A DNA stretch of 64,000 nt from assembly GCA_016867035.1 (NCBI GenBank), contig VGKO01000001.1:1998-65997 (forward strand), written 5' to 3'. The notes beneath the pieces were generated by a model. The model did not search any database and had not been told where the DNA came from. It saw only the letters and a list, made by a program, of their open reading frames with translations. How positions within the stretch are numbered: position 1 is the first letter of the stretch; the number at the start of each line of letters is the position of its first letter. A program made the translations under genes and the position numbers. Of the stretch, positions 16,795 to 59,476 are shown piece after piece. This DNA comes from Candidatus Pacearchaeota archaeon. GTDB lineage: Archaea; Nanobdellota; Nanobdellia; Pacearchaeales; GW2011-AR1.

Positions 16795-17418
16795 TTATAT
16801 TATATCTATAATTCCATTTTTTACACTTCCGGTATCTGAACAATGATAAACTTTATGGAAAAAATTGAAAGAGTGATGATTAATACTCATATTTAAAGAC
16901 CCCAATCTAACTTCATTATCCTTGCTTAAAGCAAGTTGTGGAGCCTCAAACAAAGTAGGATAAAAACCAAAGCATTTCTTGAACTCCCGCATACCATTTT
17001 TAATATAATTTTCGTCACGAATCTCTAAAAATTCTTGGAAAGTATGATAAAAACCAAAGCATTTCTTGAACTCCCGCATACCATTTTTAATATAATCTTC
17101 GTCACGAATCTCTAAAAATTCTTGGAAAGTATGATAAACCCCATGCATCCCAAGAGTTTTATTCAAAGCTAATATTTCCTGACACCAAGTTTTATTTTCG
17201 GCAATTGAAATATTATTATAAAGTGGAATTACCATTAGAATCTCGCTCTTTTCTATTATCTCTTTCTCGCAATATATTTGTGGAGAGAAGTCATCTACCT
17301 GTCTAGCCCAAAGGGCTCTTGCAAGAATAAAGTCAGCTATTAAAAAAACGATGGCAATTCCCAGAATTATAAGTATTATTCGCCATTTACTAATCCCTTT
17401 TTTATTTTTGTTTATCAT
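16795..17418 (-). CDS. N-terminally membrane-anchored protein containing a perfect-looking 29-aa tandem duplication
   Basis: An N-terminal TM helix ('WRIILIILGIAIVFLIADFIL') is present. 'YHTFQEFLEIRDE(D/N)YIKNGMREFKKCFGF' occurs twice in tandem. Confidence 0.5.
   Translation of the reverse strand: MINKNKKGISKWRIILIILGIAIVFLIADFILARALWARQVDDFSPQIYCEKEIIEKSEILMVIPLYNNISIAENKTWCQEILALNKTLGMHGVYHTFQEFLEIRDEDYIKNGMREFKKCFGFYHTFQEFLEIRDENYIKNGMREFKKCFGFYPTLFEAPQLALSKDNEVRLGSLNMSINHHSFNFFHKVYHCSDTGSVKNGIIDII
16960..17133. repeat. 87-bp tandem direct duplication (2 copies, about 2 mismatches) inside CDS 16795..17418
   Basis: The string 'ataaaaaccaaagcatttcttgaactcccgcataccatttttaatataat(t/c)ttcgtcacgaatctctaaaaattcttggaaagtatg' is seen twice back to back. 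Confidence 0.8.
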
Positions 17419-52013: not shown

Positions 52014-55000
52014 TTAACTAGTAATAAAATCCCCCAAACCACTTTGTTTCTCAGTTTCTTTACCAAAGATACTTTCAATATATCTCCTTGTTAACAGAAG
52101 GTTTTGTTTGATGTAGGCTGGAACAGCATATTTATTTGCAAGTTCTGTTGCTGGCTCTAAGTATTTTACAATACTACCATAAGAAATCGTAAATATAATT
52201 TTTCCTTCGCACTTAGTACATTTTCCTGTAAGGGGCGGACGCCTAAACTTAGAATTACATGCAACACATCTAAATTCTTGTTCGCAGAATTTTCTTAAGT
52301 TACCTCTTAAATCCCTCATAAAATGTCTATCTATTACTAATCTTGCAACATCCCCTGTTTCTGCTGCCCTTAGTTTAGTAACCAAGTCCATCTGAGCCCT
52401 AACTTTTTCAAGCATATTAGGAATTGTCTTATAAGAGGAATTGGTAACCCCTTCATTAAAGTCATTAGTGTCATGAGTAAAACCAATATTGGTAAAAGTA
52501 TCAAGGCCCTTGGCAAGTCTTTGTTTAACATTATCTATTTTTATTTCACTTGAATGATGTCCGCCCTGCTCTGAAAGTTCATACATCTCCAAAGGATAGC
52601 TTCCGCACATCTCTAAATCAAGAATTTGATCATCAACCTCTCCTGCACGTATTCTTGCATTTAAAACAAGCGGAGCATCTTGTGTACCGCCCCTATGCGA
52701 AGGCAAGTATTGTCTAGAAAAATTCAAAAGAGTGTCGAGAAGCATCATTACAGCAAGTTCATCTCCATCACAATCTCTACGACAAGCAGCATGAATATAG
52801 GGCGAAGCAAAAATAGTTTGGGTTTTGCTAAAACCAATAATTCTAGAAACAACACACGCACAATTATGAGGAGATATACAAACGGTAAGTTGCCCAATTA
52901 AATCTTCTTTCTTTTTAACATTATAAAAAGGTTTTAATTTGTAAAACTTGACAAGTAAATCATCTATAAAATTACAAATTTTGATAAAAACATCGTCTCC
53001 TCTTTCGTCAAGAGTATCTGGACAAGCGGAAATTAAAATATCATGGGGCTTAAGTTCAAGAATTTGATTTTCATTCTCAAGGACCTTCCCAAAAATATCT
53101 TGCTCATACCCTAGGCTTCTTAACTTTTCGATTGGTGCTTGAACCTCTTTTGGCTTGAAATGAGTTATTGGTGCTTCTGTACCATCATATCTAATTGTCC
53201 CGTCTTTGTTAACCGCAAGCCCATGCCTTGCTCGCAAAATCCCTTTTGCCAAATTTTCAGGAATATGGTTCTCGTTACTTGTACCTTTAACTCCTTTAAT
53301 TAAAGGAGGTACCTGGTCTTTCTCAATTCCTAAATGAGTATATGCTTTCTTAAAATAATTTTTCATATCTATTTTTCTGTTCGAATATCTTTGTCCAATT
53401 TTATGTTCAGGACATATTCTAGATTCAAATTTAGCCTTGCATTCTCTACAATAGTAAAGTGCTTTGGTTTGCTCACCACAATCTTCGCAAACAAAGTAAA
53501 TAGTTTCTTTATTGCATTTATTACAAAAGTATAATGGGAATTCTGCTTTAACTTCGCCAACCTCAAAAGATTCGTTGACACTTCTAAACCTGCCGCCCTC
53601 TTCACCAACAGGGAAGAGAACATTAGGATTCCCGATTAATCTTCTAAGCTTAGCTTTTTCAGGCCTGCCCATTCTTGTTCCAATAAATGTACCTGCTTTG
53701 TCCCGAATTCTGTATTTAGAAAATTGATTAATTGCAAATAATACTCCTTTAAGTTTAATTTCGTCCGAAGCAACCAAGGAAATAATATTATTTATTTCCG
53801 TATCTATTTTTTTACCAGAATATTCTAAAATATTTTCTGTAATCCCCAAGTTCGCCAGGAGGGCACCAGCCCAAGGGTCCGGAATGACAATATTCTCAAG
53901 CGTAACCTCATGTTCTATACCTAAAAGTTCTAAGGCCCTCTTTGCTCTTGAAAATTTTTCTCTGTTGGCTTCCCTATAAGGCAGAATTATTTTATCCTCA
54001 TTAATATTTGCATTTAAAAGATAATATAAAAGCTCCAAAAATTCTTCCCAAGTTATTTGTGTCCAGAAAAAAATAAAGGAAGGATGTAAGGAAACTCCAA
54101 AACTTTTACTTAACTCTAAAGCCTTTTCCAAACTAATATTAGATTTATCTATATTAAACTGATTAAAATCTAAATTTTTTTCTTTAAATATTTTCTTTAG
54201 TTCTAATTCCCACCACTCTTCAACAAATCCTGCTTTAAGGAGTTCGTAGTTTCTATTCAAAACATCTCCAAATGGGAAGAGAATATCTCCAAAATAAATT
54301 ATCTCTTCTACATTAGGATAAGCTTTCTTAGCCTCCGAGTAATTATTAAATTTTTTCACACTTCCGTTCTTTAACTTAACAATTGGTCCGTCAATACTAT
54401 CACAAGAACTAATTATACAACCTTTAGTCGGCTTTTCGATTTTTAGTTGAGTACCAGTAGACAAAAAATCATTAGAGATTCCCATTGTTGCTGGATGTAT
54501 CGAAGTTGCTGAAAAACCTGCTACCCTAGAACGGCCATATCTAAATCTAAATCCACCGCTTCTAGAGGGATGGCCGAAAACAGGACGCCCTGCAACCAAG
54601 TCTTTGATATAAGTTGGACTTGTATCTGTAGAACCTTTTTCTCTTTTCTTATGCAAAACAATATAATCATCTAAAAAACCCCAGTCACTAATTTTAAATC
54701 CCTTGGCTTGTAATCCCTTCAGCAACCTTTGTGCTTTTTGTGCTTTTTGTGCTAATCCTTCTCCAAAAATTAAACATAAACCCCCGCGAATAGCATTAGT
54801 CTGAACCCTAGGTAAATCTTTAAAATTAGAAACTTCTCTTTGCTCGCTCGGTTCTCCGGAAATTTGAATCGGAAGACTTTTAGCTAAGAAATAAGATTCT
54901 TCTTCTGTGGGTAAATACTGAAGATTTGTAACCCTTTCATGATAATCTACTATTTCCGTAACAAATCTTTTTATTTCATTTTCATCAGGGTCAAACTTAG

Positions 55001-55526
55001 CATAACCAAAAGTTTCCCTTATATAATCTATAAGAATCAGAGCCATACAAGAAGCTGTTGTTCCTGCGCTTCTAATTGGTCCAGAAAAATAAGGAACAAA
55101 ATACTCTTTTCCTTCCTTAGTCTTACCTAATTTTAATTCTGTAAAACCTTCTATAGGACTAGAAACCACCCCAAGCGTAGCATAAGCAAAACCCACCCTT
55201 ATACCTGCTTCCATTGCTTGTAGTAAGCTTTCAAACTTGCAGAATTTTTCTTTAGCTATTTCCTCTGCTATTCTAAATGCAACACCATAATCTAATTGTC
55301 CAAATTCTTTCTCAAGCTCTAAAATTCTTTTGACTATTCTTTCGTCGTTGATTTGAGGATATAAAACACTAATCAGCCCCACTACTTTTTCTGCAAGAGT
55401 TCTAGCAAGGGGAATTTCAACTTTATTTAGGGGATCTAGACCTTTTTTTCGAGCTTCTTCAGCTATACTATAACAAGCTCTTACTTGATCCTCCAGTTCA
55501 TGAAAATATTTTTCTATATCTACCAT
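52014..55526 (-). CDS. DNA polymerase II (PolD) large subunit DP2
   Basis: The 1170-aa product has an N-terminal 'MVDIEKYFHELEDQVR' characteristic of DP2, Zn modules 'CNKCNKETIYFVCEDCG' and 'CRECKAKFESRICPEH', and the C-terminal 'CVACNSKFRRPPLTGKCTKCEG'. There is no intein. It starts 1 bp after DP1. Confidence 0.9.
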   Translation of the reverse strand: MVDIEKYFHELEDQVRACYSIAEEARKKGLDPLNKVEIPLARTLAEKVVGLISVLYPQINDERIVKRILELEKEFGQLDYGVAFRIAEEIAKEKFCKFESLLQAMEAGIRVGFAYATLGVVSSPIEGFTELKLGKTKEGKEYFVPYFSGPIRSAGTTASCMALILIDYIRETFGYAKFDPDENEIKRFVTEIVDYHERVTNLQYLPTEEESYFLAKSLPIQISGEPSEQREVSNFKDLPRVQTNAIRGGLCLIFGEGLAQKAQKAQRLLKGLQAKGFKISDWGFLDDYIVLHKKREKGSTDTSPTYIKDLVAGRPVFGHPSRSGGFRFRYGRSRVAGFSATSIHPATMGISNDFLSTGTQLKIEKPTKGCIISSCDSIDGPIVKLKNGSVKKFNNYSEAKKAYPNVEEIIYFGDILFPFGDVLNRNYELLKAGFVEEWWELELKKIFKEKNLDFNQFNIDKSNISLEKALELSKSFGVSLHPSFIFFWTQITWEEFLELLYYLLNANINEDKIILPYREANREKFSRAKRALELLGIEHEVTLENIVIPDPWAGALLANLGITENILEYSGKKIDTEINNIISLVASDEIKLKGVLFAINQFSKYRIRDKAGTFIGTRMGRPEKAKLRRLIGNPNVLFPVGEEGGRFRSVNESFEVGEVKAEFPLYFCNKCNKETIYFVCEDCGEQTKALYYCRECKAKFESRICPEHKIGQRYSNRKIDMKNYFKKAYTHLGIEKDQVPPLIKGVKGTSNENHIPENLAKGILRARHGLAVNKDGTIRYDGTEAPITHFKPKEVQAPIEKLRSLGYEQDIFGKVLENENQILELKPHDILISACPDTLDERGDDVFIKICNFIDDLLVKFYKLKPFYNVKKKEDLIGQLTVCISPHNCACVVSRIIGFSKTQTIFASPYIHAACRRDCDGDELAVMMLLDTLLNFSRQYLPSHRGGTQDAPLVLNARIRAGEVDDQILDLEMCGSYPLEMYELSEQGGHHSSEIKIDNVKQRLAKGLDTFTNIGFTHDTNDFNEGVTNSSYKTIPNMLEKVRAQMDLVTKLRAAETGDVARLVIDRHFMRDLRGNLRKFCEQEFRCVACNSKFRRPPLTGKCTKCEGKIIFTISYGSIVKYLEPATELANKYAVPAYIKQNLLLTRRYIESIFGKETEKQSGLGDFITS

Positions 55527-55527
55527 T

Positions 55528-57096
55528 TTAATTTTGCGGTTCTGTAAAATCCAAGATTTTTATTTCCCGAGTTTTTAGATTTAACATAGGCACCTTGCAA
55601 GGATCTGGAATATTTCCAACTTTTTCTTCAAAAGCAGTTTGACTTTGCCAACAAGAACCACATACAATCAAAATATTATTATACATATCAATATCTGTTC
55701 TATGCATGTCTCCTGTAGCCATTATATCTGGCACTTCTTTTATCATTTGCATATCTTCTTTATCACTTGGAACATAAACATTGCCTGCATGCATTGGACT
55801 TAGGTGTCTATGACGCAACATATACTTCACAACCTTTGAAGGGTTTTTATTTGCTTGACCTTGTCTCAAATCTTCTATAGAATCTATCCAATCGTGCATA
55901 CTAGCACCATGATACATTCCAACTTTAAACCCTGGCTTTCTTTCACTTGATTCTATTTCAATTAAAGCAGGATTGCTTACTAGAAACAAATTATTAATTT
56001 TTGTAAGCTCTAACCCAAATTCTTCATCTACCGGTGGTTGTGGTTCTGGAACCCTAACTGCATCGTGCTGTCCTGGGCACATAATCATAGTAATATTTTT
56101 AGGAATTCTTTCGAGTAATTCTGCAAGAGCTTTATATTGGTCTTTTATATCTTTAATTTTAAGCAAGGGTTCCTGAGCAGGGTGTACTCCAACCCCATCT
56201 ACATTATCTCCTAAAATGAAAAGATATTTTATTTTACTTATCTTCTCTTTCATTTTTTCATCATCAATTCTACCATTAATCCAATCTAAAAACTTAAGAA
56301 AACTTTTTTCTAAAAAGAGAGTTGAACCAATATGAATATCTGAAATAAAGAGAGCATAAACTTCCTCTTCTGCTCTTTTCTTATCTACAATAAAACTATC
56401 TGCAAAAAATAAGTCATTTACATAAATTAGATCTCCGTTTCCAGAGCATTTAAAACCAATTACATCGTCTAAAACTATTTCCTTTGCTTTATCAAAAACC
56501 TCTTTTTTATCACAACTTATTAATAGATTAACCTTTCCCGTAATATCTTCCACTTCTAAGATAATATTTTTGTTTTTTGTTACTCTCTTATTAAAAACCA
56601 AACCAATAATAGAAAAACTCCTACTATTTCCAATCTTATTTATAGATAAAAGATTAGTAAGCTCTTTTCTTTCTTTTAGAACGTCCTTAAAAAAATTATA
56701 CCTATTTTTAAAGTGCGTTACAAAGTCTCTCACTTCAATTTTCTTATAAGGAATAATATTAGAAGAGAGTATTTTTACGGTTGGAAAAACCTTCTTTTCC
56801 TGAATCTCTAGTCTTTTCTCTTCTTTTTTTTCTATAAATGGGTTAGATAGGAAAAAACTATCTAATATTTGTTTTTTCTCAGGAGAAAATTTAGCAAAAA
56901 AAGATTTCACCTCATTTAAATTTGATTCAAATAGTCTTTTAGATATAATTCTTTGTTTAGTTAGGGCAAATAGATGTGTAAGCAAGCTCTCTCCAAAGTC
57001 ATTATCTGCAATCTTATTAAATAATTCAGAGATATCTTTGTCTAGAAGAAATCCTTTCTTTGCAAAGTGTCTAATTATATTTTCGTTTGTTTCCAT
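55528..57096 (-). CDS. DNA polymerase II (PolD) small subunit DP1 (OB fold plus calcineurin-like phosphoesterase)
   Basis: Phosphoesterase motifs 'FISDIHIGS', 'FILGDNVDG', 'CPGQHD', 'ATGDMHRT'. Its position between cdc6 and DP2 fits. Confidence 0.9.
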   Translation of the reverse strand: METNENIIRHFAKKGFLLDKDISELFNKIADNDFGESLLTHLFALTKQRIISKRLFESNLNEVKSFFAKFSPEKKQILDSFFLSNPFIEKKEEKRLEIQEKKVFPTVKILSSNIIPYKKIEVRDFVTHFKNRYNFFKDVLKERKELTNLLSINKIGNSRSFSIIGLVFNKRVTKNKNIILEVEDITGKVNLLISCDKKEVFDKAKEIVLDDVIGFKCSGNGDLIYVNDLFFADSFIVDKKRAEEEVYALFISDIHIGSTLFLEKSFLKFLDWINGRIDDEKMKEKISKIKYLFILGDNVDGVGVHPAQEPLLKIKDIKDQYKALAELLERIPKNITMIMCPGQHDAVRVPEPQPPVDEEFGLELTKINNLFLVSNPALIEIESSERKPGFKVGMYHGASMHDWIDSIEDLRQGQANKNPSKVVKYMLRHRHLSPMHAGNVYVPSDKEDMQMIKEVPDIMATGDMHRTDIDMYNNILIVCGSCWQSQTAFEEKVGNIPDPCKVPMLNLKTREIKILDFTEPQN

Positions 57097-57221: not shown

Positions 57222-58460
57222 TCATATTCCGAGCGAATCTCTTAGTATTTCTTTGATTTTTTCAATAATTCCTTGAGGAATAGCTAACTTTATTTCTTTA
57301 GTTCTTCCGTAACGCCCTTTACTAATAACCTTAGCATTAATTATCCCCAACATATCGAACTCTGATAAAATATCGCCCACCCTTCTTTGTGTTAAAACTT
57401 CCATATTTATTCTCTTGCATAAATCTTGATAAACATTATAAACATCTCCTGTAAAAATCTTTCCTGTTTCGTCATCAAAGAGTTGTTTTTGCTTTCTTGA
57501 ATATTCTCTTCCTTCTTCTAAATGTATAATTGCTTGAAGAACTGCTTGAAATTGTTTAGGTTCTGTTTCAACAATATCTAAAATCTTGTCCCTTTCTATT
57601 TTATTATTCGCTTCGTCTATATGCTTTATAGTTATCTTATTATCACCATTCCTTTCTGCTATCTCTCCTGCTACTCTTAATAAGTCGAGTGCTCTTCTAG
57701 CATCCCCGTGCTCGCGAGCAGCAAAGGCAGCACACTTGGAAAGAGCGGCAGGATCTATTATATTCTCTTTAAAAGCTTCTAATGCTCTTTTATTTAATAT
57801 TCCTTGTAATTGAAGAGCGTTATAAGGTGGAAAAACTATTTCTTCTTCGCTTAGACTACTTCTTACTCGTGGATCAAGGCTTTCTAAAAATCTTAAATCA
57901 TTACTTATCCCAACAATTATAATTTGAGTTTTAGTCAACTCACTATTTAATCTAGTAAGATTATACAAAAAATTGTCCGAAATCTTCTTCACTAACTGAT
58001 CAATTTCGTCAAGAATTAAAATAAATAATTTTTCTTTTGAGTTTTGAAGTAAATTAAGAAACTTATTATAAACTTGGTCTGTAGGCAAACCCGTAGCAGG
58101 AACATCCCCTCCTAGCTGCTTGATTAATTCAGCTAACATTCTATACTCTGTATCTGCAACTTTCTTAAGTTTGCAATTAACATATTCTATTCTTAAGGGA
58201 TATTGTTCTTTTGCTCTTTTTGAAAGTTCATTGCGAACATACTGTACTGTTAAAGTTTTTCCGGTTCCTGTCTTTCCGTAAATAAAAAGGTTAGAAGTTT
58301 TCTGCCCAATTAAAGCAGGAGCAAGAATAGAGGCTACAGTCTCTATTTGTTTATCTCTATAAGGAATCTCCAATGGCGAATAATTTGACTGTAGAACAGT
58401 CTTATTTTTAAAAAGAGTTCTAGAATTAATTGAATCAAAAATTTTATCTATTTTATCCAT
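57222..58460 (-). CDS. cdc6: Orc1/Cdc6 replication initiator
   Basis: AAA+ Walker A 'IYGKTGTGKTLTV', Walker B 'LILDEID', sensor regions and a C-terminal winged helix. It is adjacent to the AT-rich putative origin. Confidence 0.9.
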   Translation of the reverse strand: MDKIDKIFDSINSRTLFKNKTVLQSNYSPLEIPYRDKQIETVASILAPALIGQKTSNLFIYGKTGTGKTLTVQYVRNELSKRAKEQYPLRIEYVNCKLKKVADTEYRMLAELIKQLGGDVPATGLPTDQVYNKFLNLLQNSKEKLFILILDEIDQLVKKISDNFLYNLTRLNSELTKTQIIIVGISNDLRFLESLDPRVRSSLSEEEIVFPPYNALQLQGILNKRALEAFKENIIDPAALSKCAAFAAREHGDARRALDLLRVAGEIAERNGDNKITIKHIDEANNKIERDKILDIVETEPKQFQAVLQAIIHLEEGREYSRKQKQLFDDETGKIFTGDVYNVYQDLCKRINMEVLTQRRVGDILSEFDMLGIINAKVISKGRYGRTKEIKLAIPQGIIEKIKEILRDSLGI

Positions 58461-59215
58461 CTCTTTTTGTTTGTTTATTCTTTGTTTTTTAATTAATAAT
58501 AAAGGTTATTTATATTGAGTGGATAAAAGTATTATATAAACATAATTGTAATTTTGAATATATTTAACAACCTATATTTCTCATAGAGGCTATTAAGCAT
58601 ATATTTTATCCCCAACGGAAAAACATCTAAAGAAGTTTATAAAACCATGCAATCACTTAAAAGAAAGAACACCTATTTTTCGCTTGGAAAAGAGGTAAAA
58701 CTAGAATTAAACTAAAAAGTAAATCTAAAACAACCAAATAAAGTAAAGTAAAGTAAAGTAAAAACCCTCCTACCCCTTAATACCCACTGGAAAAAGATAA
58801 ACAGGAAACATAATAATATTTTAATGATACCCTATAAATAAAAATAAGGAAAAATTACAAAAAACCTTAAACATTATTCTATAAAATATATTAATTAATA
58901 TATATAATATAATATATATACTATACTATACTATATATTTATAAATAAAAAATAAAAAAATAAAAACACTAGTTTTGATTTATAAATATTTCCATATGAA
59001 ATAAAAGGGTAGGTGTAACCCTTATTTTCCTTTATTTTTCATAGTTTTTCATAGTTTTTCGCAGCTTTTTGCTTAGAATAATATCTTTTACCTGCTTTTT
59101 TATCATAATCTTTAAATTAATTTTATTTATATCTTTTTTATTAAGAAATATAATCTTTTTTTATAATCAAACAAATATAGAAATATTTATAAAGAGGCTT
59201 TTGATACATTAAATT
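58461..59215. other. Candidate chromosomal replication origin (oriC): AT-rich intergenic region with ORB-like motifs, a DUE-like A/T block and short tandem repeats
   Basis: It lies immediately upstream of orc1/cdc6 and is the longest non-coding stretch in the window. The block 58861-58980 is almost pure A/T. ORB-like cores are 'cccaacGGAAAaac' (58611-58624) and 'cccactGGAAAaag' (58783-58796). An (aagta)x4 repeat lies at 58741-58760. On the minus strand, 'GGAAAAtaAGGGTT' lies within 59005-59030. 'atagtttttc' occurs twice at 59040-59060. Gene polarity diverges here. Confidence 0.6.
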
Positions 59216-59476
59216 ATGGCTATAGAAAAAAAGACATTAAAAGAGTTAATGGGTAAACTAATTGTTACAAAAGAAGGTAAGAGATTAGGTATTGTTCAAG
59301 ATGTTACTTTCGAAACTCGAACAGGCGAGCTTATTCATGTAGTAGTTAAAGATCCTACTCCTTACACAAGAAGCGTTAATTTAGAAAAGACAGCTGAAGG
59401 CGAGACACTTATACCTTACAATTCAATTATAGCAGTAGGGGATTTCTTAGTTATATCAGAAGAAGATTTAGTTTAA
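59216..59476 (+). CDS. PRC-barrel domain protein (stand-alone, 86 aa)
   Basis: 'LMGKLIVTKEGKRLGIVQDVTFETRTGELIHVVVKD' plus 'IPYNSIIAVGDFLVIS' give a PRC-barrel pattern. Confidence 0.55.
   Translation: MAIEKKTLKELMGKLIVTKEGKRLGIVQDVTFETRTGELIHVVVKDPTPYTRSVNLEKTAEGETLIPYNSIIAVGDFLVISEEDLV

Follow-up and report, generated by a model that had tools for sequence, protein, structure and literature searches.

The cdc6 spacer and its origin recognition boxes

The sequence analysed here is a 64-kb stretch (hereafter the window) of contig VGKO01000001.1 from a Candidatus Pacearchaeota archaeon (DPANN), in which a spacer of 755 bp (58461-59215) separates two divergent genes, the orc1/cdc6 initiator gene (57222-58460, minus strand) on its left and a gene for a PRC-barrel protein (59216-59476, plus strand) on its right. 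The cdc6 gene is followed on the minus strand by the genes for the small and large subunits of DNA polymerase D (PolD), DP1 (55528-57096) and DP2 (52014-55526). We consider it highly probable, judging from the sequence, that this spacer is the chromosomal replication origin, oriC, of the organism, and that it is of the type built from origin recognition boxes (ORBs) for an Orc1-1 initiator. A probable oriC had been proposed at this place in a preliminary description of the window, and the proposal is now supported because a matrix for ORB elements matches the window in the spacer only, the same matrix recognises the ORBs of Pyrococcus, and the layout of the spacer is kept in nearly all of the related loci that could be compared.

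The gene order, which had been described as Pyrococcus-type with a PRC-barrel gene at the right edge of the spacer, was borne out by gene calling and Pfam searches. The Orc1/Cdc6 protein, 100% identical to an NCBI protein of 'Candidatus Pacearchaeota archaeon', contains AAA, Cdc6_lid and Cdc6_C domains, the last being a winged-helix domain (WHD), and gave full-length PDB matches to Orc1-1 of S. solfataricus (2qby_A, 2e-101) and ORC1 of A. pernix (2v1u_A, 1.4e-88), the match to Orc1-3 being much weaker (3.7e-46). The initiator is thus predicted to be a member of the ORB-binding Orc1-1 class. DP1 has the Pfam domains DNA_pol_E_B and Metallophos, DP2 has the N-terminal, central and catalytic PolC_DP2 domains (E down to 1e-110), and the PRC-barrel protein, which is CdpB-like, matches Pfam PRC (PF05239, 4.4e-9) and the PRC-barrel proteins 8qzo_A (1.4e-9) and 8onw in PDB. 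The switch in gene polarity that had been described at the spacer does exist but is local and lends the origin no support, with 33 minus-strand and 17 plus-strand open reading frames (ORFs) to the left and a mixed arrangement on the right after about 2.5 kb.

The spacer had been called the most AT-rich part of the window, and this holds: it has 20.1% GC as against 32.5% for the whole, and the lowest-GC stretch of the window falls within it at scales of 60, 120, 300 and 755 bp. The nearly pure A/T block at 58861-58980, previously suggested as a candidate duplex unwinding element (DUE), has 11 G/C per 120 bases and is overlapped by the least stable duplexes in the 64 kb, which lie at 58880-58929 (50-bp scale) and 58866-58965 (100-bp scale; -88.2 kcal/mol compared with a window mean of -121.5, sd 6.7). 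ORFs within the spacer are all of 47 aa or less and of low complexity, and none is credible.

Among 80 related loci from species-representative genomes, 54 have an AT-rich spacer of 187-1051 bp (12-29% GC) before cdc6. A position weight matrix (PWM) of 30 nt was derived by k-mer enrichment and iteration on 54 spacers, the window being left out of the training, and defined the element cCAC(A/C)CC-N4-ATTTCyTATGGAAA. In the relatives, 141 sites were found within spacers (4.3 per kb), compared with 0.08 per kb elsewhere. A matrix search had been proposed as a check on the origin, and its outcome was favourable: the window contains exactly three matches of at least 12 bits, all within the spacer, and the scan found no other ORB cluster in the 64 kb. 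We also found that the dyad part of the matrix scores 12.5-15.1 bits on the P. furiosus ORB1, ORB2, ORB3 and mini-ORB oligonucleotides, which bind Cdc6 in gel shifts (PMC1904270), compared with -6.4 on ORB1-mut and -13.7 on an unrelated control oligonucleotide. Since the matrix separates the oligonucleotides that bind Cdc6 from the mutant and the control, the elements of the spacer can be assigned to the archaeal ORB family and are not a mere local repeat.

The strongest of the elements, ORB-d (58985-59014, minus strand; ACCTACCCTTTTATTTCATATGGAAATATT), scores 29.9 bits, is inverted relative to ORB-a, -b and -c, and is conserved in 8 of the 8 sequences of alignment A1, which comprises the window and seven loci at 84-92% Cdc6 identity. 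Both ORB-b (58665-58694, plus strand; 17.5 bits; AAGAACACCTATTTTTCGCTTGGAAAAGAG) and ORB-c (58768-58797, plus strand; 14.0 bits) are also conserved in A1. Read on the opposite strand, ORB-b is TTCCAAGCGAA, carrying the TTCC and GAA core motifs of PMC1904270, and ORB-c is TTTTTCCAGTGGGTATTAAGGGGTAGGAGGG, of which TTCCAGTGG is identical to the beginning of the 13-mer that the same paper gives for P. abyssi. ORB-a (58566-58595, plus strand), at the position of the cdc6-proximal ORB of the family, is weak and degenerate, with a good dyad (11.4 bits) and a decayed C-string, so that the full matrix gives 4.0 bits; the block 58556-58584 is nevertheless 86% conserved, and its homologues score 12.6-18.2 bits in L083, L087, L093 and L094. 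The exact palindrome TTCCNNNGGAA has no match anywhere in the window, and the ORB dyads of the window are therefore all imperfect.

Of the three ORB-like elements named in the preliminary description, one proved to be real, and the strongest element, ORB-d, had been missed together with ORB-b. The two plus-strand GGAAA cores that had been named both exist and form a 22-nt direct repeat (77%); the one at 58783-58796 lies within ORB-c, but the one at 58611-58624 fails the ORB matrix. The pattern CCANYGGAAA, which came from its own two copies in the spacer, has two matches in the 64 kb, both in the spacer, and at least two matches in 19 of 100 shuffles. The element GGAAAAtaAGGGTT in opposite orientation (59017-59030) is present beside the genuine inverted ORB, as is the hairpin formed by AAGGGT and ACCCTT (59005-59010 / 59018-59023), but neither is conserved in close relatives. 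The same applies to the pentamer and decamer repeats: (TAAAG)x4.8 at 58739-58762, detected by Tandem Repeats Finder, is absent or gapped in close relatives, and TTTTTCATAG x2.6 at 59035-59060 is not conserved in them, so that the former is lineage-specific filler and neither rises above lineage-specific noise.

ORB-c and ORB-d, with their dyads facing inward, bracket an inter-ORB A/T region of 187 bp (58798-58984; 11.8% GC), which holds the least stable duplexes of the window and is the candidate DUE. Comparison with related archaea, the second check that had been proposed, revealed the same layout in 52 of the 56 loci with at least 700 bp upstream of cdc6, namely a distal inverted ORB, next an A/T region with medians of 203 bp and 13.4% GC, after it between one and three proximal ORBs, and then cdc6, and no violation of this order was found among the 56. 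The gene order PRC-spacer-cdc6-DP1-DP2 is itself syntenic in about 50 species-level relatives. In A1 the mean column identity across the spacer is 61%, conservation being confined to the ORBs, an A/T core and promoter boxes. Spacing was fixed only for the unit from ORB-a to ORB-b; a phased 100-bp ORB array had to be rejected for ORB-b to ORB-c, which are 28-103 bp apart in close relatives. What emerges from the sequences is an Orc1-1/ORB-type oriC conserved across Pacearchaeota, with its activity and fork direction as predictions.

Several further features of the related spacers and their surroundings were observed. In one close relative (L085:1900-2380; A1 columns ~120-440), a tandem array of about 480 bp, made of ~21-22-nt units TTTTAGGTTATTTTAAGATGG, is inserted between the PRC promoter and the distal ORB, and the 107-aa 'gene' called there is probably spurious. 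Seventeen of the 80 contigs (L001, L004, L005, L011, L013, L020, L029-L031, L033, L045, L055, L059, L062, L070, L076 and L080) stop within the origin spacer, at a distance of 77-342 bp upstream of cdc6, and it appears that the A/T core or low-complexity DNA systematically breaks short-read assemblies there. In addition, an extra, near-canonical ORB (AACCCCTTCATTTCCAGTGGAAA, 18-36 bits), oriented like the distal spacer ORB, was found 1.7-3.3 kb upstream of cdc6 in L057:2500-3126 and about 40 other loci. It sits within a gene of 208-269 aa resembling winged helix-turn-helix (wHTH) proteins, beside a (GTCT)n tract encoding TDRQ repeats, and recalls the ORB cluster inside dp1 of Thermococcales; a divergent neighbour of 205 aa also has a GTCT tract (VQTG repeats). 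Neither a GTCT tract nor a homologue of the wHTH-like gene was found in the window.

The A/T core and the promoter elements

Within the candidate DUE lies a sequence-conserved A/T core of 60 bp (58902-58961), containing (TATAG)3 pentamers and the TATA-like ATTTATAAAT and having no G/C except the three Cs of the pentamers. Its column identity is 94%, on a par with the adjoining coding sequence, compared with the mean of 61% for the spacer. An exact 38-mer of the core was found in eight metagenome contigs with Cdc6 identities to the window of 66-92%, each time between the PRC-barrel gene and cdc6 and flanked by inverted ORBs. When the window was compared with six loci at 66-76% Cdc6 identity, the core was the longest exact DNA match in about 10 kb (44-52 nt), and no exact match in coding DNA exceeded 27 nt. 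By this comparison the core surpasses the flanking genes in conservation.

The distribution of the core is patchy relative to Cdc6 similarity. For example, L002, L003 and L101, which are at a similar distance, have a different core variant, ATTTATAAATATTTATAT(TATAT)n, and L068 has a core of the TATAG type at the same position (L068:5682-5741) with its pentamers inverted. Such discrete variants hint at allele-like replacement or recombination at the origin core.

A plain unwinding element is expected to be constrained in composition, not in sequence. The core would be under selection at the sequence level, and most likely it is either recognised by an additional factor or needed in a specific form for melting or helicase loading. 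An analogy is offered by a motif inside the DUE of Sulfolobus, ucm, which is essential and is bound by UBP, a protein that contacts MCM (PMC12141716).

Apart from the ORBs and the core, conservation in the spacer is that of putative promoter boxes. Family-wide, a distance of 96-99 bp separates the two proximal ORBs in 45 of 53 cases, and the 45 units of about 98 bp, when stacked, contain in order the proximal ORB, an AACG(G)AAAAA box at a fixed position, a strongly conserved TTATATAAA, TTATAACTACT and the next ORB. The window has a 101-bp form of the unit in its segment 58566-58694. Between its ORB-a and ORB-b this segment contains a conserved, probable TATA box (GTTTATAAAA) and CCATGCAATCACTTAAAAGAAAG (58635-58667, minus strand; block 58641-58676 85% conserved), which are homologous to TTATATAAA...TTATAACTACT of the family-wide unit, and the AACGGAAAAA box (58612-58624, minus strand), which matches the AACG(G)AAAAA box. 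The CG of the AACGGAAAAA box is invariant in close relatives and is located 17-18 nt downstream of the TATA box, read toward cdc6, making the box, which does not fit the ORB matrix, a candidate initiator or transcription-start box of the cdc6 promoter. A mere 21-32 nt separates the proximal ORB from the cdc6 ATG in several species, which leaves the promoter no other position. From this geometry, the unit is more likely to be a cdc6 promoter nested between two ORBs, with 58611-58624 as its start-site box, and the presence of ORB-a in the cdc6 leader suggests autoregulation. A further TATA-like box near cdc6 (58532-58543, minus strand), with its block 58536-58543 at 95% column identity in A1, may also have a promoter role.

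At the other end of the spacer, a TATA-like box (58979-58987, minus strand) abuts ORB-d, which it prolongs as a conserved element of putative function; in most of the 54 loci listed, TTWWAAA comes directly after the distal ORB. The putative promoter of the PRC-barrel gene is marked by a B recognition element (BRE)/TATA sequence, AGAAATATTTATAAAG (59179-59194, plus strand; block 59178-59199 93% conserved), which conforms to archaeal promoter geometry and ends 22 nt before the ATG at 59216; for this reason the PRC mRNA is predicted to be leaderless. The TATA-like box at ORB-d forms a 95% inverted repeat with the PRC promoter; in the clade of the window, the ORB-d half-site together with the TATA box recurs as a 95% inverted copy in the form of the PRC promoter (ATAGAAATATTTATAAA).

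Almost every Pacearchaeota locus examined (L002-L102) shows this divergent linkage of an 86-aa PRC-barrel (CdpB-like) gene with the origin and cdc6: the spacer is preceded by a divergent ORF of about 86 aa in nearly all of the relatives, and its PRC identity was confirmed in loci L081-L098. A link of the PRC-barrel family to cell division of the FtsZ/SepF type has been shown in haloarchaea, and cdc6 and replication are not mentioned in the accompanying gene-neighbourhood survey (bioRxiv 10.1101/2023.03.28.534520). Two unannotated neighbours (156 aa and 169 aa) had no informative match in PDB or Pfam. In one lineage (L083:6024-6602 and L084:3451-4029), an HD-domain gene of 192 aa is inserted between DP1 and DP2, splitting a pair that is tight otherwise. 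The window also contains, at 16952-17138, an 87-bp tandem repeat (2.1 copies, 98% identity, score 360) that is unrelated to the origin.

Strand asymmetry and alternative readings

Raw cumulative GC skew follows the strand of the genes and was set aside in favour of third-position skew split by gene orientation. Over the 58 kb on the cdc6 side, the coding-strand GC skew at third positions (GC3 skew) is +0.197 for minus-strand genes and -0.183 for plus-strand genes (Mann-Whitney U test, p=5e-8). The asymmetry in 1-58460 is thus independent of orientation (GC3 ~0.17-0.19; the corresponding TA3 ~0.16), with almost no coding-strand component, and the cdc6-sense strand is rich in G and T at third positions throughout (G>C, T>A). 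This signal, a leading-strand signature, fits a fork that goes from the spacer through cdc6 and PolD.

Other observations weigh against the spacer as an oriC. The preliminary description had held that the absence of an inflection in cumulative skew would refute an origin here, and we found that the orientation-corrected GC3 skew keeps its sign across the spacer, without reversal, both in the window and in 42 relatives (analysed over +/-6-10 kb, with 5-10 kb on the PRC side). In the window, which extends only 4.8 kb to the right of the spacer, the plus-strand GC3 skew is -0.176 in the left arm and -0.058 +/- 0.055 in the right arm, a value reached by 15% of left-arm stretches of equal length, and the cumulative GC3 minimum is at 62.9 kb. 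For the relatives, strand components of +0.25 (cdc6 side) and +0.21 (PRC side) were obtained, the signal being weaker on the latter (paired Wilcoxon p=7e-7) but with no inversion and no extremum; among the long contigs, the value drops from +0.32 to 0.00 in L101 and hardly changes in L102. As for the ORBs, the scores of ORB-b (17.5 bits) and ORB-c (14.0 bits) are modest compared with the 25-35 bits typical of relatives, ORB-a is below the threshold, and the dyad alone is unspecific, with nine matches of at least 12 bits in the window.

Skew reversal commonly accompanies a single bidirectional origin but does not define an origin of this type. The classical skew peak was found in only 18 of 224 RefSeq archaeal genomes (PMC7111523), and for this reason we do not take the missing reversal to refute the origin; it still lowers confidence in a conventional bidirectional one. 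The skew may be non-replicative, or replication may be strongly asymmetric.

The second of these options amounts to a variant of the oriC assignment, not a denial of it: the origin would be functional but largely unidirectional or strongly asymmetric, its productive fork moving toward cdc6-DP1-DP2 and the PRC side being reached by an arriving fork, with origin and terminus adjacent. We regard this as unlikely, although it would explain several of the data. The strand-wide skew does not change sign across the spacer and is weaker on the PRC side without being inverted, falling to zero in L101; on the cdc6 side it extends over 58 kb whatever the gene orientation; the ORBs are asymmetric, with two or three on the cdc6 side and one opposite; and a monotonic skew has been read as one-directional replication in ultra-small genomes of bacteria from the candidate phyla radiation (CPR; PMC7143001). 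However, the evidence on the PRC side spans 5-10 kb only, L102 has almost no step, skew is unreliable in most archaea (PMC7111523), and oriC1 of Sulfolobus, with a similar 2+1 asymmetry of ORBs, fires bidirectionally (PMC12141716). In addition, a search of the window with the dif consensus of Thermococcales gave no match, and no dif-like site was found near the spacer. The stronger proposal, that Pacearchaeota chromosomes are replicated essentially one way toward cdc6/PolD, with the terminus adjoining on the PRC-barrel side, and that firing depends on a factor reading the core, in the manner of ucm/UBP, and not merely on low stability, is in our view quite unlikely.

A different reading is that the spacer is only a divergent promoter/operator, the ORB-like sites being operators for cdc6 and the PRC-barrel gene, bound by Orc1/Cdc6 in autoregulation or by another transcription factor, and that replication starts elsewhere. 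The conserved TATA boxes between and beside the ORBs, the proximal ORB in what must be the cdc6 5' leader of several relatives and the lack of skew reversal all agree with such an arrangement. Autoregulation and origin function coexist in known origins, however, so that the promoter evidence is no argument against an origin. Moreover, the spacer is much longer than promoters need, the 64 kb holds no other ORB cluster, and inverted full-length ORBs around an extreme A/T block with a constrained core are the defining anatomy of an archaeal origin, which promoters do not require. We therefore think it improbable that the spacer is a promoter region alone.

Although extra origins of archaea are often captured elements with their own orc1/cdc6 (PMC4640148), an origin belonging to an integrated plasmid or virus is scarcely credible here, since the genes that come after cdc6 are those of the core replicase, DP1 and DP2, the locus is syntenic in the relatives noted above, and its surroundings showed neither an integrase nor a flanking tRNA target nor a compositional island. 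Equally far-fetched is a non-coding RNA gene, which the long conserved non-coding blocks might have suggested: these blocks are ORB repeats in both orientations and a tract of A and T alone that includes T-runs, a sub-block has been inverted in L068 without a change of position, as suits a duplex DNA site better than an RNA, and the reading was dropped after a scan at the Rfam gathering threshold gave no family in the spacer and only two tRNAs in the window, both far off.

Comparison with known origins and significance

Taking the spacer as an Orc1-1/ORB-type oriC, a mechanism can be sketched. Monomers of the Orc1/Cdc6 encoded next to the spacer would bind the ORBs in a fixed polarity, with the WHD on the TTTC..GGAAA dyad and the initiator-specific motif (ISM) of the AAA+ domain on the C/G-string. 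Protection of the conserved mini-ORB by the WHD, and contact of the AAA+ ISM with the flank, are described in PMC3089459. MCM loading and DNA melting would take place in the 187-bp stretch between the inverted ORB-c and ORB-d. ORB-b and the weak ORB-a would enclose the cdc6 promoter, with its TATA box at 58635-58644 and its start near the CG at 58616-58617, and Orc1 on ORB-a would occupy the 5' leader and thereby autoregulate cdc6. In Sulfolobus, the inverted ORB2 and ORB3 direct MCM to the DUE between them (PMC12141716), and the layout found here fits a mechanism of that type.

The likeness to oriC1 of Sulfolobus extends to the adjacent gene of Orc1-1 type, the full-length ORBs made of a dyad and a G/C-string, the two inverted ORBs around an AT-rich DUE with one or more extra ORBs on the initiator-gene side, and the conserved element inside the DUE (here 58902-58961). 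This element is, however, a 60-bp A/T core in Pacearchaeota and the 11-bp ucm in Sulfolobus, and a further difference is the putative cdc6 promoter of the Pacearchaeota locus, which is set between two ORBs in a unit fixed at about 98 bp. The oriC of Pyrococcus abyssi/furiosus has the same gene order, oriC-cdc6-dp1-dp2 (PMC1904270), as well as inverted ORBs, AT-rich regions and an ORB dyad (TTTCC..GGAA) close enough for the Pacearchaeota matrix to recognise P. furiosus ORB1-3 and mini-ORB. It differs in having an array of 13-bp mini-ORBs, which are lacking here, a second ORB cluster in dp1, where our matrix has no match of at least 6 bits (55528-57096), a distance of about 8 nt between C-string and dyad in place of about 4, and a clear reversal of skew.

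Two further comparisons concern the skew. In Ca. Forterrea multitransposorum (DPANN, Diapherotrites; PMC5905446) the origin was likewise placed beside cdc6, but it was called by classical cumulative GC skew with no ORBs described, whereas ORBs and a candidate DUE are present here with no skew extremum. The CPR Microgenomates Ch65, Collierbacteria and Beckwithbacteria (PMC7143001) have a GC skew of one sign over the whole chromosome and resemble the present case in that their genomes are ultra-small, with one strand G-poor whatever the gene orientation and no reversal at the expected origin; they are, however, bacteria with DnaA/oriC and complete chromosomes, as opposed to 64 kb here and the shorter flanks of the relatives.

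The searchable literature yielded no account of ORBs or of the anatomy of an origin in Pacearchaeota or in other DPANN archaea of the Nanoarchaeota group. Pacearchaeota are uncultured, and a sequence-defined origin provides an anchor for orienting and checking metagenome-assembled genomes and a reference point for read-depth estimates of growth rate; it also accounts for the assembly breaks at the spacer. The four ORBs, the nested cdc6 promoter and the invariant A/T core supply testable DNA sites for biochemistry with recombinant Orc1/Cdc6 and MCM. Finally, the conservation of the core, which is higher than that of the initiator gene, or the strong orientation-independent skew without reversal could be a sign that origins work in a non-canonical way in archaea with ultra-small genomes.

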